From Escherichia phage SHIN8, in the sequence record PP627280.1: a DNA stretch of 58,460 nt; one strand, written 5' to 3'. Numbering within the stretch: the stretch's first letter is position 1; each line of letters opens with the position of its first letter. The translations under genes were made by a program, and so were the position numbers. The notes beneath the pieces are model-generated. The model made no database searches. It was not told where the DNA came from and saw only the letters and a program-made list of their open reading frames with translations. Positions 14,746 to 58,440 of the stretch are shown here, in pieces.

Positions 14746-15154
14746 GTTGCCGGGCTGGCAGACACGTTTATTAACCACAGTAAAGGAGTTGTCATCGACT
14801 CCTTTTTCTTGGGGTGAAAATGATTGCTGCACCTTCGCGGCTAAATGTGTTGATGCGCAATACGGCACAAATATCTACGAACAAGTTGCTGGAAAATATA
14901 GTACCGAGCTTGGAAGTAAAAAGTTCACTATTGAAAGAGTTGGAACCGCTTACCTCCCATTGTTATTGGATACTTACCTCAGCGAACGCGTTGACAAGAA
15001 CTATGCGCAAAGAGGCGATGTGGTTACATTTGAGGGAGCATTGGGCTTAACTGCTGGCATATTATGGACTGGATATGTATGGGCTATGGGTCCGAACGGT
15101 GTGGAAACATTCCCGCTTAATAAGATCAAAATTACGGATATTTGGAGGGTCTAA
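14720..15154 (+). CDS. tail tip assembly protein (gpK-like, putative)
   Basis: ORF-track ORF 14570-15154 trimmed to internal ATG 14720 with GGAG RBS; conserved Cys in SWGENDCCTF. Confidence 0.35.
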   Translation: MRQGSPMSKLPGWQTRLLTTVKELSSTPFSWGENDCCTFAAKCVDAQYGTNIYEQVAGKYSTELGSKKFTIERVGTAYLPLLLDTYLSERVDKNYAQRGDVVTFEGALGLTAGILWTGYVWAMGPNGVETFPLNKIKITDIWRV

Positions 15155-18100
15155 TGCCACCAGCAATAATTGGAGCAGCGATAGCTTTAGGTGCGTCGGC
15201 TGCTGCTGCGGCTAGTATTATTTCGGCTACTACCGCTCTCGTTATCGGTATTGCTGCAACCGCGGCAGGTGCTCTTTTGACTAAGACACCAAATATGAAC
15301 TTTGATGCTTACAAGGGGCAGCAAGAGCGTAAACAGGTTCTGCGTGCGGCTACAGCGTCACGTTCTGTTGTATATGGCACGACCGTAGCGTCCGGACTAT
15401 TAGCATTTGCGGAGGAAGAAGCTGGAGATCAAGATGAAGGTGAATGGATGCATCTTGTTGTTGTTCTTGCTAGTCATAAATTGGAAGGTATTGAAACGAT
15501 TTGGTTGGGTGATGACGGAATTGATTGGTTTGGTGAAAACGCTACTTGGGAGTTTCATAACGACCGTCAGACTGTTGACCCATTCATGTTAAGACATTGT
15601 CCTTCCTGGAAGGAGGATATGATTGGCAAGGGTATTGCATGGCTACGTTTAAGCTTAAAGTTTGATGCTGAAAAATTCCCATCTGGTTTGCCAAACGTCA
15701 AGGTGTTGAAAAAGGGACGTAGAGTCTATGACCCACGTTCCGGTCAAACTGTCTTTAGTGATAACGCAGCTCTTGTAATACTCGATTATTTCCGCACGTA
15801 TTTAAAGCGCAAGGATGAAAACATTAACTGGGACCAATTCAAGGAAGCTGCTAACATCTGCGACGAGTTTGTAACTAATGCAGATAATACCACAGAAAGA
15901 CGCTACCGAATTAATGGTGAGTTTGAAGTGGACGAAGCACCTGCCAAGATTCTCGATGCTATGCTTGAAGCTTGTGGCGGGGAGCTAACCTATATTGGCG
16001 GCAAGCATGGTCTGTTAGTTGGTGCTTATTACGGCCCAGCTACCATGACTTTGGATGAAAGCTGCATTGCTGGGGATATTAAAATAATCCCTGAGACATC
16101 TTATAAAGAGCGTACCAATACCATTACAGGTACATTCGTCGACCCGAAGCAAACATACGCTGAAGCAGATTTTCCTCCAGTTGTGGTTAAGGAATGGGTG
16201 GAAAAAGATGGCGGTGAAATAACGCAAGACATGGATTTCCGCTTTGTTACAAGTGAATATCAAGCTCAACGTCTTGCTAATATTATTTTACGTCGTAAGC
16301 GTGTTGGTCGAACAATTGAAGTGCCGTGTAACATGAAGGGGTATAAATTCCGCCCCGGCATGTATGTCAACGTAACCATTTCAAATATCGGAATGAAAAA
16401 CGTTGAGATGCGCGTTACTAAATGGTCATTCGATCCTAAAGGTGGGATTAATCTTGTTCTTCGTCAAGACTTCCTGGAAATGTGGGACGACGCTATTGGT
16501 AAACCAATGGAGCGCCCGGATCTGGTAGACCTTCCGTCTGGTGCTATTGCTCAACCGCAAAACCTTCAGTATCAGGTATTGCAGATTAGCGATGTTGTGC
16601 AGGGTGTTTTAACGTGGAGCAATATTGGGCAGGTAGCATATAACCGCGTAGCCGTGCGACAGGGAGGTACAACGGTTTGGACCGCCCAAGTCCCTGGCCA
16701 AAATGTTCGCGTTACTGGGTTGCTGCGGGGCGCGTATACAGCGCATGTTCAAGCGGTAGCTTACAGCGGGGCAATATCGCCGGAAGCATATCTGGAATTC
16801 AATATTCAAGCACCACCTCCGCCAACTTCTGTTGAAGTGCAACAGGGTTACTTTGCTATAAGTTTGATCCCAAAATCTGCGGATATTGCAAACGTTAGCA
16901 CGCAGTATGATTTCTGGACTTCCGGTGAAACAAGATTGTCTTCCGTGTCTACAGACATTGTAGAACGCGAAGCAACTCGTAAAGGTATGGGTACAACTTG
17001 GACGTCAGAAGGGTTGAAGAATGACCACACTTATTACTGGTATGTCCGCACCATTAACGCTTTCGGATCATCTGCATTTGTAGAAGTAGCTGCATTGTGC
17101 TTTACAACAGCTACAGATTTGATGCCACAAATTGATTCTGAATTCAAGAAGACGGAGACTTACAAAGAGCTTACTACTGAAATCACAGGTGTTAAAGACG
17201 GTGTTACTCAGCTTAGCCAAACTGTAGTGGAAACTGAACAGCGTTTAAGTCAAAGCGTTAGCAATGTTCAACAAAGCGTTATCACTTTAGATGGTGTTGT
17301 TCAGGATCAGGGCGTTACCATTAATGAACAAGGACAGCTCATCGATGCACAGGGTAAGTTGATTGACACTCAAGGTAAGACTATTGAAACGGTTAGCGCG
17401 ACCGTGCAGGAGACAAGTAAAGCAGTTGTAGATTTGGAAGGTAATGTTAACGCTCAATGGGGTGCTAAAGTACAGGTAGATAGTAAAGGGCAAAAATACG
17501 TTGCTGGTATCCAGTTAGGTATGGAAGGGTCCGGTGGAGCTGTTCAGTCTTACTTCATGGTAAGCGCTAACAACTTTGCTATCTATAACCCGACAAATAG
17601 CGTAGCAGAACTAGCATTTGCTGTTAAGAACGGTCAAGTGTTCATGAAGGCTGCGTTTATTGAAAATGGTACTATTGACAGCGCTAAAATTTCAAATCAA
17701 ATTCAGTCAACAAACTACGCAAGCAATAGCGCGGGTTGGATGATTAACAAGAATGGTAGCGCTCAGTTTAACAACGTAACGATAAGAGGTACTGTATACG
17801 CTAGCAACGGATCTTTCACAGGCACAGTGAACGCAACAAGCGGTAAATTCAAGGGTACTGTGGAAGCTACCAGTTTTGTGGGTGATGTTGCGAATATGTG
17901 TGTCATTGCTGAGTCTGCAATACCAAACACACAAACTACAAGTTCAAGAACCTGGACAAAAACTTTCAAAGACTCATCCGGTTCAACATTATCTAAAGAC
18001 TTTGTGTTGCTATTAAGTTATAGTTTAACTGCATATACATCAAATCGGGCAAGTCGTATAATTGTGACTGCTAACATAGGGGAGACATCAATTACAAGGA

Positions 18101-18387
18101 GGATTGAGCGAGCTGCTAATGGTCCTGCCATGGATGTAACCATACCTTTAGCAGTGAAAGGAAGTCGTATAATTGTGACTGCTAACATAGGGGAGACATC
18201 AATTACAAGGAGGATTGAGCGAGCTGCTAATGGTCCTGCCATGGATGTAACCATACCTTTAGCAGTGAAAGGAAAGACAGCGTCGAGCGTAACAATAAGC
18301 GTTAAGGAGGAGTATACGAACGTCTATGGGAGCTACTTGCGCCCGTCTGTAATATTAATGACTCGCGGAACTGGTAGTTGGTCGTAA
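15142..18387 (+). CDS. central tail fibre / host specificity protein (lambda J-like)
   Basis: 1081 aa; hydrophobic N-terminus then J-like core; C-terminal region carries a tandem 37-aa duplication. Confidence 0.75.
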   Translation: MEGLMPPAIIGAAIALGASAAAAASIISATTALVIGIAATAAGALLTKTPNMNFDAYKGQQERKQVLRAATASRSVVYGTTVASGLLAFAEEEAGDQDEGEWMHLVVVLASHKLEGIETIWLGDDGIDWFGENATWEFHNDRQTVDPFMLRHCPSWKEDMIGKGIAWLRLSLKFDAEKFPSGLPNVKVLKKGRRVYDPRSGQTVFSDNAALVILDYFRTYLKRKDENINWDQFKEAANICDEFVTNADNTTERRYRINGEFEVDEAPAKILDAMLEACGGELTYIGGKHGLLVGAYYGPATMTLDESCIAGDIKIIPETSYKERTNTITGTFVDPKQTYAEADFPPVVVKEWVEKDGGEITQDMDFRFVTSEYQAQRLANIILRRKRVGRTIEVPCNMKGYKFRPGMYVNVTISNIGMKNVEMRVTKWSFDPKGGINLVLRQDFLEMWDDAIGKPMERPDLVDLPSGAIAQPQNLQYQVLQISDVVQGVLTWSNIGQVAYNRVAVRQGGTTVWTAQVPGQNVRVTGLLRGAYTAHVQAVAYSGAISPEAYLEFNIQAPPPPTSVEVQQGYFAISLIPKSADIANVSTQYDFWTSGETRLSSVSTDIVEREATRKGMGTTWTSEGLKNDHTYYWYVRTINAFGSSAFVEVAALCFTTATDLMPQIDSEFKKTETYKELTTEITGVKDGVTQLSQTVVETEQRLSQSVSNVQQSVITLDGVVQDQGVTINEQGQLIDAQGKLIDTQGKTIETVSATVQETSKAVVDLEGNVNAQWGAKVQVDSKGQKYVAGIQLGMEGSGGAVQSYFMVSANNFAIYNPTNSVAELAFAVKNGQVFMKAAFIENGTIDSAKISNQIQSTNYASNSAGWMINKNGSAQFNNVTIRGTVYASNGSFTGTVNATSGKFKGTVEATSFVGDVANMCVIAESAIPNTQTTSSRTWTKTFKDSSGSTLSKDFVLLLSYSLTAYTSNRASRIIVTANIGETSITRRIERAANGPAMDVTIPLAVKGSRIIVTANIGETSITRRIERAANGPAMDVTIPLAVKGKTASSVTISVKEEYTNVYGSYLRPSVILMTRGTGSWS
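18051..18272 (+). repeat. perfect tandem duplication, 2 x 111 bp, in-frame within tail fibre gene
   Basis: 18051-18161 and 18162-18272 identical base for base; encodes the same 37 aa twice. Confidence 0.9.
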
Positions 18388-18394
18388 TAAATAA

Positions 18395-18424
18395 TTAACC
18401 CCTCATTTGAGGGGTTAATTTTCA
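18395..18424. terminator. bidirectional intrinsic terminator
   Basis: TTAACCCCTCA-tt-TGAGGGGTTAA perfect stem followed by TTTT; sits between convergent fibre and lipoprotein genes. Confidence 0.55.
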
Positions 18425-18655
18425 ATAATCAATCACACAGTTTGAAGGTGAGCCAATTCGTCGGTATTCGTGATCAATTTCATGACACCATTGCCCAGTC
18501 ATTGGAAGCTTTTCGGTATCATAAATTAAAGAACCGTTACCATCGCGATCCAAAGGTTTTGGAACGACGCCGGAATTAGGTTTACCAGTATTTAAACCAT
18601 TACCACATGCAGTAAGGGACAAACATAATGCCAGCATAATTAGAGCGTGTTTCAT
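18422..18655 (-). CDS. small lipoprotein, candidate superinfection-exclusion protein (Llp/Cor-like by position)
   Basis: 77 aa; signal peptide with lipobox LTAC; convergent with tail fibre gene. Confidence 0.55.
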   Translation of the reverse strand: MKHALIMLALCLSLTACGNGLNTGKPNSGVVPKPLDRDGNGSLIYDTEKLPMTGQWCHEIDHEYRRIGSPSNCVIDY

Positions 18656-18737
18656 CGGGACTCCTTTGTGTTGTTGTCAAGGTTCAATTTTAATATACTT
18701 GTTGTGTTGAGTAAGTCAAATAAAAGTGGGAGATATT

Positions 18738-19346
18738 ATGGCAACTCGTTTACGTGGTACTTTAGTTGATGGTTTGAACAAGCCTATTATCAACGCTACA
18801 GTTGCGCTTTTAGCTAAAGGAAACAGTCTTACCGTATTATCCGGCAGCGAAGCTATCTTTAAAACAAGTGCAACCGGAACATATGACATCACCGTCCAAA
18901 CAGGTTATTACAAGGTTATTATCGGTCTGCAGGGCGTAGAGCCATATAAAGCTGGTGAAATTGCTATTTACGCGGATAGTAAAGAAGGTACGCTGAATAA
19001 CTATTTAACTTCCTGGGCACCAGAAGAGTTAACTCCGGAAGTTATTGCTCAGGTAAAAGATTTGGTTGCACAAGCAGAGACAGCTAAGAATGCTTCAGCT
19101 TCGTCTGCTACTAAATCCGAGCAAGAACGCGTTAAAGCAGAAGCTACTCGTGCTCTCCTGCGCGATCAGCACGCACAAGCGCAAGCTGTTCTGATCTGTG
19201 ACCTGAAGTCCCAGTTGCAGGAAGCTCGCTTTGCAAACTCTCAGTTGGCGCAGACGGCTGGCCTTACCTGTAAAATCAATCAGGTTGAGCAGTTAGTTAA
19301 CTTTAAGCTGCCAACTCCTCCAACTCCTCCGACTGGCTGCTGCTAA
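18738..19346 (+). CDS. protein with carboxypeptidase-regulatory-like beta-sandwich N-domain (possible fibre/structural)
   Basis: start moved to ATG 18738 with GGGAG RBS (track start 18726 is GTG); N-domain G-x-V-x-D...ATGTYDITVQTGYYKV; coiled-coil middle; C-terminal PTPPTPPTGCC. Confidence 0.4.
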   Translation: MATRLRGTLVDGLNKPIINATVALLAKGNSLTVLSGSEAIFKTSATGTYDITVQTGYYKVIIGLQGVEPYKAGEIAIYADSKEGTLNNYLTSWAPEELTPEVIAQVKDLVAQAETAKNASASSATKSEQERVKAEATRALLRDQHAQAQAVLICDLKSQLQEARFANSQLAQTAGLTCKINQVEQLVNFKLPTPPTPPTGCC

Positions 19347-56672: not shown

Positions 56673-56916
56673 TGTTTTACCTTCACAATTAAACTGGAGG
56701 ATAAAAGATTTTTATAACTATGTCCAAGTGAACGATGATATTTTCTTCACTGATTGTGAGGAGGTAGCTATTGCGATTATTGATAGTCTGCAAACTAATG
56801 GCCTTGTTATCTTTTGGGATGGGGTTAACGATTACTCAGTATATTCAGAAAAGTATCTTGGCGAAGGGAACTCATTATTCGCTAAGTCCTGCGTTCTGGC
56901 ATTCCTTAATAGATAA
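56647..56916 (+). CDS. hypothetical protein
   Basis: internal ATG of track ORF 56569-56916; start uncertain. Confidence 0.3.
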   Translation: MELNVRVFDVLPSQLNWRIKDFYNYVQVNDDIFFTDCEEVAIAIIDSLQTNGLVIFWDGVNDYSVYSEKYLGEGNSLFAKSCVLAFLNR

Positions 56917-57001
56917 TCCGTCATATCCAATTCAGCTTGCTCCTCTTGATCAAAGCCTGTTAATATTATCAAGCCTAAATCAAGCGGAGGAGGCTTTATC
57001 T

Positions 57002-57439
57002 ATGGCACTTCAACCTCGTGGTATTCGTAATAACAATCCAGGCAATATTCGCTGGGGTGATAATTGGCAGGGCTTAGTTCCTGCTGATAAGCGAACCGAT
57101 AAATCTTTTGCTCAATTCACGCAACCGATTTACGGCATTCGTGCGCTAGCGAAAATCCTGACAAACTACACCAAACGTGAAGGCTTGCCCAATGTGGGTA
57201 AGAAAAACATCGACACTGTACGTGAAATTATCGCTCGCTGGGCACCGCCTAACGAAAACGATACGGAAGCGTATATTCGCTCTGTTGCCAAAGCAATTGG
57301 TGTTCAACCTAACGATCCAATTAATGTCTTCGACAAGGCAATTATGTCAGGATTGGTGAAAGCAATCATTCGTCATGAAAATGGCATGATGCCCTATACC
57401 GATGACGTAATTAACCGCGCTATTGCAATGGTACTTTAA
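57002..57439 (+). CDS. endolysin (putative peptidoglycan hydrolase)
   Basis: track ORF trimmed to ATG 57002 with GGAGGAGG RBS; conserved GIRNNNPGNIRW segment; directly upstream of holin and spanins. Confidence 0.5.
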   Translation: MALQPRGIRNNNPGNIRWGDNWQGLVPADKRTDKSFAQFTQPIYGIRALAKILTNYTKREGLPNVGKKNIDTVREIIARWAPPNENDTEAYIRSVAKAIGVQPNDPINVFDKAIMSGLVKAIIRHENGMMPYTDDVINRAIAMVL

Positions 57440-57443
57440 CTGA

Positions 57444-57466
57444 CGGGGCGTTAGCCCCTTTTATTT
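57444..57466 (+). terminator. putative intrinsic terminator between endolysin and holin
   Basis: GGGGC-gtta-GCCCC followed by TTTTATTT. Confidence 0.4.
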
Positions 57467-57475
57467 GGAGGGAAC

Positions 57476-57820
57476 ATGTTCAATTCACCCAACGAACATT
57501 GGGCAGTTCTAGCGGGGTTTGCGTTTATCTCCCTCATTGGGGGAGCTCTCGGTTATGTCATGCGTACAATAGACGCTGGTAAGAAAGTACGGGCAAGTAT
57601 TGCGTTTCTTGAAGGCTTATCCGCCGCTTTCTTTGGCGTTATAATGTATGCGATCTACAGGGAGTTTAACATCAGCCTTTGGTTCGCTTTTGGCCTTGCT
57701 GGCCTATTTGCTTGGGCAGGTTCACGTGCTACGCTAAAAGCCCTAACGTCGCTTATAGCTTCACGGACAGGGATCAAACTCGATTCAGGGGACTGCAAAC
57801 ATGAAAACGATTCTAAATAA
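57476..57820 (+). CDS. holin
   Basis: 114 aa, three hydrophobic helices, charged C-terminus; GGAGGG RBS. Confidence 0.55.
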   Translation: MFNSPNEHWAVLAGFAFISLIGGALGYVMRTIDAGKKVRASIAFLEGLSAAFFGVIMYAIYREFNISLWFAFGLAGLFAWAGSRATLKALTSLIASRTGIKLDSGDCKHENDSK

Positions 57821-58277
57821 CTTCTTCGGTTTTATAAAAACTAAACCGCGTCTGTTTATCGAGTATTTGATGATCGGCGCGGTTGTGTTTTTATGCGGGG
57901 TGGCTGCATACTTGTGGTCACAGAACGAGCTCAGCAAAACTAATTTAAATCATGCTGAGCAAAGACTAACCGTTGTAGAACGGGACAATGCAAAGCTGGG
58001 CGAAGCTGTTGTATTTCTTGCATCCCAACGGGAGAAGGATACTGAATCCTATCGAAAATTGGCTTCAGCAATTGAAAGTGAGCAACATAACCACAGGTTG
58101 CTTCAGGACAAATTAAAAGCACTGGAGAAAAGCAATGCCGACGTCAAAGCTTATCTTAATGAGCGTGTTCCTGATGATTTGCGCAGGCTGCTCGACGGAG
58201 ATACAACCTCCACCACCGCCGCAGATAGTGAAGATAAAACTTCCGGCCCATCTGTTGGTAGAATGTCGGGAAGTTGA
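57801..58277 (+). CDS. i-spanin (Rz-like)
   Basis: 158 aa; N-terminal transmembrane helix then coiled-coil periplasmic domain. Confidence 0.55.
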   Translation: MKTILNNFFGFIKTKPRLFIEYLMIGAVVFLCGVAAYLWSQNELSKTNLNHAEQRLTVVERDNAKLGEAVVFLASQREKDTESYRKLASAIESEQHNHRLLQDKLKALEKSNADVKAYLNERVPDDLRRLLDGDTTSTTAADSEDKTSGPSVGRMSGS

Positions 58278-58440
58278 TAAATATCCTTTGGTTTATACAA
58301 GGGATATTATCCAACGTTTGCAGGATACAGAAACAGCTCTGACTGAATGTAAACTGAGGGTTAAGGAAATCATACGCTATGAAGCTGAAAATGTTTCGCT
58401 TGATTTTGTAGGATCAAGCAATTATATTCAGCCTAAATAG
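58135..58440 (+). CDS. o-spanin (Rz1-like lipoprotein) overlapping i-spanin in +1 frame
   Basis: 101 aa; signal peptide with Cys at LMICAGC, PPPPP run; starts inside Rz. Confidence 0.55.
   Translation: MPTSKLILMSVFLMICAGCSTEIQPPPPPQIVKIKLPAHLLVECREVDKYPLVYTRDIIQRLQDTETALTECKLRVKEIIRYEAENVSLDFVGSSNYIQPK

Follow-up and report, generated by a model that had tools for sequence, protein, structure and literature searches.

The small lipoprotein gene beside the central tail-tip gene of Escherichia phage SHIN8 probably encodes an exclusion lipoprotein directed at LamB. The class is familiar, with a biology already established for Llp, Cor, Rtp45, and Lpp010, and the hypothesis for this locus has been published. 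In our assessment, the ~6 kDa product is likely to make the infected cell, and the debris left by lysis, refractory to phages that use the maltoporin LamB, the progeny of the phage itself included. This assignment follows from homology to the tested lipoprotein Lpp010, from a strict tie between the gene and the use of LamB, and from the solved periplasmic mechanisms of Llp on FhuA and Rtp45 on LptDE. Maffei et al. (2021) described the loci downstream of gpJ as encoding receptor-binding proteins together with cognate exclusion proteins (PMC8594841), and van den Berg et al. [quoted passage not shown] Bas23 is a near-identical phage, and its lipoprotein is 96% identical to that of SHIN8. To these reports we add explicit evidence that the lipoprotein of Seuratvirus is homologous to Lpp010, a clean pattern of lipoprotein presence and absence against measured receptors, the finding of the gene beside two different J receptor-binding subtypes, and its occurrence in lambda-like prophages.

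The window, by which we mean the whole stretch of DNA analysed (58,460 nt; PP627280.1), is the genome of a virulent Seuratvirus (Queuovirinae). The region was 91-99% identical to the Seuratvirus phages SLUR75, KS_S4, slur01, Seurat, CAjan, Bas21, Bas23, and Bas24 (the BASEL names of the last three being GottfriedDienst, WildeMaa, and SeppeHuegi, respectively). The features of the locus are collected in Table 1. A sequence-only reading of this DNA had described a 77-aa ORF with a signal peptide and an LTAC lipobox, and each of these elements was present: the ORF itself, Lys2, the hydrophobic core, and L14-T15-A16-C17. The same reading placed the ORF immediately downstream of a fibre gene on the opposite strand. 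Position and orientation were correct, but the neighbour is a J-like central tail-tip protein by Pfam and PHROG 31, not a fibre.

Table 1. Positions of the features discussed, in nucleotides of the SHIN8 window
Feature	Position	Strand	Remarks
J-like central tail-tip protein gene	15142..18387	plus	Pfam Phage_Tail_Tip and Ig_J_second; PHROG 31
J C-terminal 193 aa (residues 889-1081)	17806-18384	plus	Presumed LamB-binding domain; genetically linked to the lipoprotein gene
Perfect tandem duplication, 2 x 111 nt (37 aa, SRIIVTANIGETSITRRIERAANGPAMDVTIPLAVKG)	18051..18272	plus	Inside the receptor-binding C-terminal domain of J
12-bp GC-cored hairpin	18393..18420	both	Putative bidirectional intrinsic terminator common to the convergent J and lipoprotein genes
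77-aa prolipoprotein CDS	18422..18655	minus	ATG start; stop codon 18422-18424; member of PHROG 12984 (type-C Lpp, or Lpp010, family)
Mature lipoprotein, 61 aa (C17-Y77)	18425..18607	minus	Gly directly after the Cys predicted to be lipidated
Lipobox LTAC	18605-18616	minus	Predicted; read from sequence
Signal peptide, residues 1-16 (MKHALIMLALCLSLTA)	18608..18655	minus	Read from sequence
Shine-Dalgarno AAGGAG	18661..18666	minus	5 nt upstream of the lipoprotein ATG
Sigma-70-like promoter TTGACT-16-TATATT	18692..18719	minus	Consensus match only; 10/12 consensus positions
Side (lateral) tail fibre gene	18738-19346		On the far side of the lipoprotein ORF from J; 202 aa, N-terminal PF08400 domain only
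Lysis cassette	56771-58440		Complete; right end of SHIN8, ~39 kb from the lipoprotein ORF
Endolysin	56771-57439		Lysis cassette
Holin	57476-57820		Lysis cassette
i-spanin	57801-58277		Lysis cassette
o-spanin lipoprotein, proline-rich	58135-58440		Overlaps i-spanin; ICAGC lipobox and PPPPP stretch

Two observations concern the neighbouring genes. The mechanical ORF call began J at a TTG codon, while the relatives Bas21, Bas25, and KS_S4 are annotated from an ATG at 15153-15154 (MPPAIIG...); the ATG at 15154 is the more likely start. The side fibre of SHIN8 appears vestigial: its counterpart in KS_S4 has 1028 aa, and the Bas21 version is similarly short.

The lipoprotein reads MKHALIMLALCLSLTAC GNGLNTGKPNSGVVPKPLDRDGNGSLIYDTEKLPMTGQWCHEIDHEYRRIGSPSNCVIDY, with MKHALIMLALCLSLTAC followed directly by GNG... 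Its signal peptide comprises K2 and a hydrophobic core, and leads into the lipobox. The profile of PHROG 12984 matched the protein over its full length (positions 1-77 of 77; E = 1.3e-56). Scans with Pfam, NCBIfam, and PADLOC gave matches at the level of the signal peptide or none; lipoprotein signal-peptide models (e.g. LptM) matched weakly, over residues 1-19 only. Beyond the lipid anchor, the mature N-terminus is rich in Gly, Asn, and Pro and has low predicted order (AF2 pLDDT 50-57 for residues 11-30). The AF2 model, built with 25 homologues, reached a pLDDT of 66 overall and ~75 for residues 30-70, with a pTM of 0.40.

Putative signals for separate expression flank the gene. The Shine-Dalgarno sequence was kept in Bas21, Bas22, and 9g, and the record of phage Seurat annotates a ribosome-binding site at the equivalent place. 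The sigma-70-like promoter was kept in Bas21 and Bas22, and its -10 hexamer in 9g. Judging by its match to consensus, this putative promoter would give the lipoprotein gene a transcript of its own. At the other end, the 34-nt gap between the end of J (18387) and the lipoprotein stop codon contains the hairpin, whose folding energies were -17.6 kcal/mol (plus strand; z-score -5.1) and -18.2 kcal/mol (minus strand; z-score -4.8); none of 200 shuffles folded as well. The shared bidirectional terminator proposed in the sequence-only reading is supported by a strong hairpin in the gap and by the same annotation in Seurat, where the GenBank record gives the equivalent structure the label [quoted passage not shown]. 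In mEp010, the equivalent hairpin is annotated as terminator T18. The Seurat record also already labels the lipoprotein ORF "putative lipoprotein".

The word "moron" in that record, and the fact that small outer-membrane lipoproteins of phages are most often o-spanins, would fit a lysis protein (the spanin subunit of the outer membrane) or an unrelated moron that plays no part in exclusion. We regard such an identity as highly improbable. SHIN8 has a complete lysis cassette of its own elsewhere in the genome, the gene is tied to J rather than to lysis genes in the phage and prophage loci examined, and its homologue Lpp010 has a demonstrated exclusion phenotype. An o-spanin identity in particular was rejected, as the cassette includes its own overlapping i-spanin/o-spanin pair and the lipoprotein ORF is without a partner gene.

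Comparison across phages revealed a conserved gene at a conserved place. A full-length copy was found by tblastn in 43 phage records. Pairwise dN/dS of the gene ranged from 0.08 to 0.22, with synonymous sites near saturation, and the gene is under strong purifying selection. For example, the SHIN8 and Bas22 proteins were near-identical from residue 23 on despite a pS of 0.62. The 77-aa ORF is therefore a real gene, beyond chance, given the 43 full-length records, the low dN/dS, and the kept position. Directly after J and convergent on it, the gene was present in Bas21 and Bas22 (Seuratvirus), 9g (Nonagvirus), and EP23 (Dhillonvirus), and the same J-convergent place was occupied in AS5 (Drexlerviridae), mEp010 (temperate, mEpimmI), and a lambda-like E. 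coli prophage. Altogether, the position was kept across five or six phage lineages. The EP23 gene is present but unannotated, and the genome paper of 9g contains no discussion of the lipoprotein gene.

Within the protein, Cys17, Cys57, and Cys73 were invariant (Cys17 in the 25 family members aligned). Further invariant positions were PNSGV (26-30), T47, E48, G54-Q55-W56-C57, R66, G68, N72, and C73, and the alignment that includes Lpp010 had 20 invariant columns. Cys57 and Cys73 probably form a disulfide in the periplasm.

Bacterial assemblies contributed two settings. One homologue (P0002; L013 6001-6234), 92% identical to the SHIN8 lipoprotein, is that of the lambda-like E. coli prophage, where it was convergent on a 1264-aa J gene. 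This J gene belongs to a lambda-like tail module with homologues of L, K, I, and J, carried by a chromosomal contig of 102 kb. The LamB module thus circulates in lambdoid prophages too. The other homologue (P0026; L015 3293-3511 and L016 2212-2430, E. coli assemblies) was an exception: it has 72 aa, lies among small genes on the same strand and not beside J, and is without a canonical lipobox (..ALCCTAFA/NT..). This protein may represent a soluble variant in the periplasm that belongs to a different phage context.

When 1.8 billion representative proteins were searched exhaustively with the HMM of the family, only four matched, which indicates that the family is narrow, and the search gave no bridge from it to Cor or Llp. 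The fourth match (P0030) was a metagenomic adhesin of 4467 aa with CshA/SdrD repeats, nine of which matched profile positions 32-62 (E = 1.7e-6). This match probably reflects resemblance to a beta-hairpin repeat and not common ancestry.

Functional evidence comes from a homologue with a measured phenotype. The SHIN8 lipoprotein was 54% identical, over 95% of its length, to the product of a gene shared by mEp010, mEp013, mEp044, and mEp554 (tblastn, E = 2e-21). In mEp010 this is gp116, or Lpp010, a "type-C lipoprotein" whose gene is convergent on J across terminator T18. Negrete-Mendez et al. (2025) cloned gp116 as Lpp010 and expressed it from a plasmid in E. coli W3110 (PMC11893012). Expression excluded mEp010, mEp044, mEp554, and, unexpectedly, lambda, while mEp013 escaped although it is LamB-dependent (PMC11893012). 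Exclusion is thus not absolute for every LamB user. All four of these mEp phages required lamB, whereas mEp021 and mEp515 required ompA and carried a different lipoprotein (PMC11893012).

Presence of the gene followed receptor use. Among the BASEL phages, Bas21, Bas22, Bas23, and Bas24 are LamB-dependent, Bas14, Bas18, Bas19, Bas20, and Bas25 use LptD, and Bas15-17 use FhuA (PMC8594841, table S5). The lipoprotein was present in Bas21, 22, 23, and 24, with 97%, 83%, 96%, and 95% amino-acid identity to the SHIN8 protein, and tblastn, with all 43 matching records listed, returned no copy from Bas14-20, Bas25, mEp021, or mEp515. Among phages with tested receptors, the gene therefore occurred in all LamB users (8 of 8; Bas21-24, mEp010, mEp013, mEp044, and mEp554) and in none of the LptD, FhuA, or OmpA users (0 of 10), counts that are inflated by close relatedness and correspond to roughly three independent lineages. 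The sequence-only reading had proposed a receptor-blocking exclusion lipoprotein at this locus. That proposal gains support, by sequence and by analogy, from the Lpp010 homology, the association with LamB use, and the naming of the Bas23 locus in the literature (PMC9586334).

The adjoining J protein also bears on the receptor. Outside the 37-aa duplication, the J C-terminus of SHIN8 was identical to that of LamB-dependent Bas21 at 153 of 156 positions. It aligned to the very last residue with the J C-terminus of mEp010 (34% identity) and only weakly with lambda J (26%). The J protein of Bas25, an LptD user, was colinear with SHIN8 J (74% identity) up to about residue 888 and then stopped, while SHIN8 J extends further; at the Bas25 locus a 321-aa gene replaces the lipoprotein. 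A second J C-terminal subtype stood beside the lipoprotein gene in Bas22, 9g, and the E. coli prophage, and that of Bas22 was 65% identical to that of mEp010. Since the lipoprotein accompanies two divergent J C-terminal types, it follows the receptor LamB and not one receptor-binding sequence. Exclusion of lambda by Lpp010 fits this interpretation.

The duplication within the J C-terminus was not found in Bas21. Among the 60 records listed of 98, only KS_S4 had a matching J C-terminus of equal length to that of SHIN8. The duplication may affect receptor binding; alternatively, it may have arisen recently by replication slippage.

Exclusion by Lpp010 was measured by plating, in plaque and spot assays only, and the word "adsorption" is absent from the paper (PMC11893012). 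Such data would also accommodate a lipoprotein that excludes LamB phages after adsorption, for instance at insertion of the tail tip or tape measure or at passage of DNA through the periplasm, with LamB binding intact. The sparing of mEp013, which needs LamB, favours this alternative, as does the architecture of LamB, which has no plug and no known allostery and is therefore a mechanistically awkward target for blocking from the periplasm. We nonetheless consider a block after adsorption unlikely. In phages with unrelated backbones, presence of the gene tracks the outer-membrane receptor, and Lpp010 acts even on lambda, a phage with a no more than distantly related J C-terminus. The usual view of the benefit for virulent phages is that progeny are spared adsorption to infected cells and debris, and such a benefit requires that irreversible adsorption be blocked (PMC11990801, PMC12685063).

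Our preferred reading, inactivation of LamB itself, can be laid out as a series of steps. A sigma-70-type promoter of its own would let the gene be transcribed separately from the late tail genes around it. Given the lipobox, the precursor would be exported and receive its lipid at Cys17, and signal peptidase II would remove the signal peptide. The Lol system would then carry the lipoprotein to the inner leaflet of the outer membrane, as the E. coli +2 rule predicts for a lipoprotein with Gly, rather than Asp, at that position. Export, lipidation, and sorting by the +2 rule are established E. coli lipoprotein biology. Finally, the PNSGV segment and the Cys57/Cys73 core would bind LamB from the periplasmic side, and bound LamB would become unusable by the receptor-binding domain of J. 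The strict conservation of PNSGV within a tether that looks flexible suggests a segment that makes contacts, rather than one that merely links.

A surface location is an alternative to action from the periplasm. For lipoproteins that target LamB or LptD, van den Berg et al. considered that the protein might be flipped to the surface or threaded through the outer membrane (PMC9586334), where it would mask LamB from outside in the manner of TraT or other surface lipoproteins. The Gly/Asn/Pro-rich mature N-terminus, with its pLDDT of 50-57 across residues 11-30, would suit such an arrangement. However, both solved cases, first Llp and then Rtp45, proved periplasmic (PMC9586334, PMC12685063), and neither a surface-export signal nor a partner gene is visible at the SHIN8 locus. 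We hold masking from the surface to be quite unlikely and retain action from the periplasm.

How a periplasmic protein could block LamB was flagged as a question by van den Berg et al., given that this receptor has no plug and no known allostery (PMC9586334). One tentative answer, which we rate as possible but short of probable, is that this trimeric sugar porin is disabled by a structural mechanism distinct from the plug-mediated reverse allostery of Llp. PNSGV and a beta-hairpin might insert into the barrel from its periplasmic side, in the way known for Rtp45 and LptD, or the N-terminal linker might thread the pore; uptake of maltodextrins would then probably be shut as well. If true, a plug-independent block of LamB would answer the question of how such lipoproteins could block the receptor without allostery (PMC9586334), and would extend the known ways in which periplasmic proteins remodel outer-membrane channels. 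It would also provide a genetically encoded 6-kDa LamB inhibitor that protects against lambda-type phages and many other LamB phages.

Receptor-blocking lipoproteins determine whether the progeny of a lytic phage are lost on cell debris, and whether the members of a phage cocktail interfere with one another. The Lpp010 family could cause cross-exclusion between therapeutic phages that share LamB. Because this family marks LamB use in small siphoviruses, it helps to predict receptors from genome sequence.

Among characterized systems, Lpp010 is the closest. The two proteins are true homologues of like size that share the invariant motifs PNSGV, TEKLP, GQWC, and NC, and both genes are convergent on J across a terminator and lie upstream of the side fibre gene. 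They differ in their carriers (a virulent Queuovirinae phage for SHIN8, the temperate mEpimmI phage mEp010 for Lpp010), in the residues that follow the lipid anchor (GNGLNTGK in SHIN8, AVDKEAALHNL in Lpp010), and in the linked J receptor-binding domain, which in SHIN8 is of the other subtype and 34% identical to that of mEp010. At 54% identity, the exclusion specificity of the SHIN8 lipoprotein could differ from that of Lpp010.

By sequence homology, the SHIN8 lipoprotein belongs only to this Lpp010 family, PHROG 12984. The sequence-only reading had likened it to Llp and Cor, a likeness that stands at the level of function but not of homology, since alignments covered the signal peptide only and the Cor model gave no match. 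In organization, Llp, Cor, Rtp45, Lpp010, and the SHIN8 gene are alike, each being a small lipoprotein gene beside a host-specificity gene with its own promoter or terminator. Cor (T1, phi80, N15, and HK022; NF047972) resembles the SHIN8 protein as a lipoprotein of ~75 aa whose gene is convergent, across a terminator, on the block of tail-tip and host-specificity genes. It excludes phages that share its receptor, and acts on FhuA-dependent phages. Homology to Cor was rejected: NF047972 matched T1 Cor as a positive control (E = 3.5e-15) and matched neither the SHIN8 protein (E <= 1) nor Lpp010, and hhalign aligned 21 signal-peptide columns only.

Llp of T5 (PDB 8A60, 7QJF) is likewise a 77-aa prolipoprotein, encoded beside the receptor-binding protein gene and under its own promoter. 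It contains an intramolecular disulfide, resides on the periplasmic side of the outer membrane, and binds the periplasmic face of FhuA, inactivating the phage's own receptor (PMC9586334). FhuA is a TonB-dependent transporter whose plug mediates this "reverse allostery", in contrast to LamB, which is plugless. Homology to Llp was also rejected, as the hhalign alignment covered the signal peptide only (probability 51%). Queried by sequence with the protein or the family profile, the PDB yielded chance matches only (E > 0.5). At E <= 10, neither query matched Llp (8A60, 7QJF), which was confirmed to be in that copy of the database, or Rtp45 (9RPS), whose presence in it was unconfirmed. Foldseek with the AF2 model returned nothing at E < 1 from the PDB and BFVD and nothing at E < 5 from the PDB; with a model of such low confidence (pLDDT 66), the empty result is uninformative about Llp and Rtp45, and not negative.

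In small siphoviruses, Rtp45 of phage Rtp, or the equivalent lipoprotein of Bas18 (PDB 9RPS), resembles the SHIN8 protein in its size of ~6 kDa and its locus downstream of gpJ. It contains a single disulfide and targets a receptor that lies outside the TonB-dependent transporters. On LptDE, Rtp45 binds at the periplasmic rim and sends a beta-hairpin up the lumen that displaces the extracellular loops EL4 and EL5 (PMC12685063). LptDE is a different target, and the lumen of LamB is much narrower than that of LptD. By analogy, a LamB blocker finds its best mechanistic template in Rtp45.
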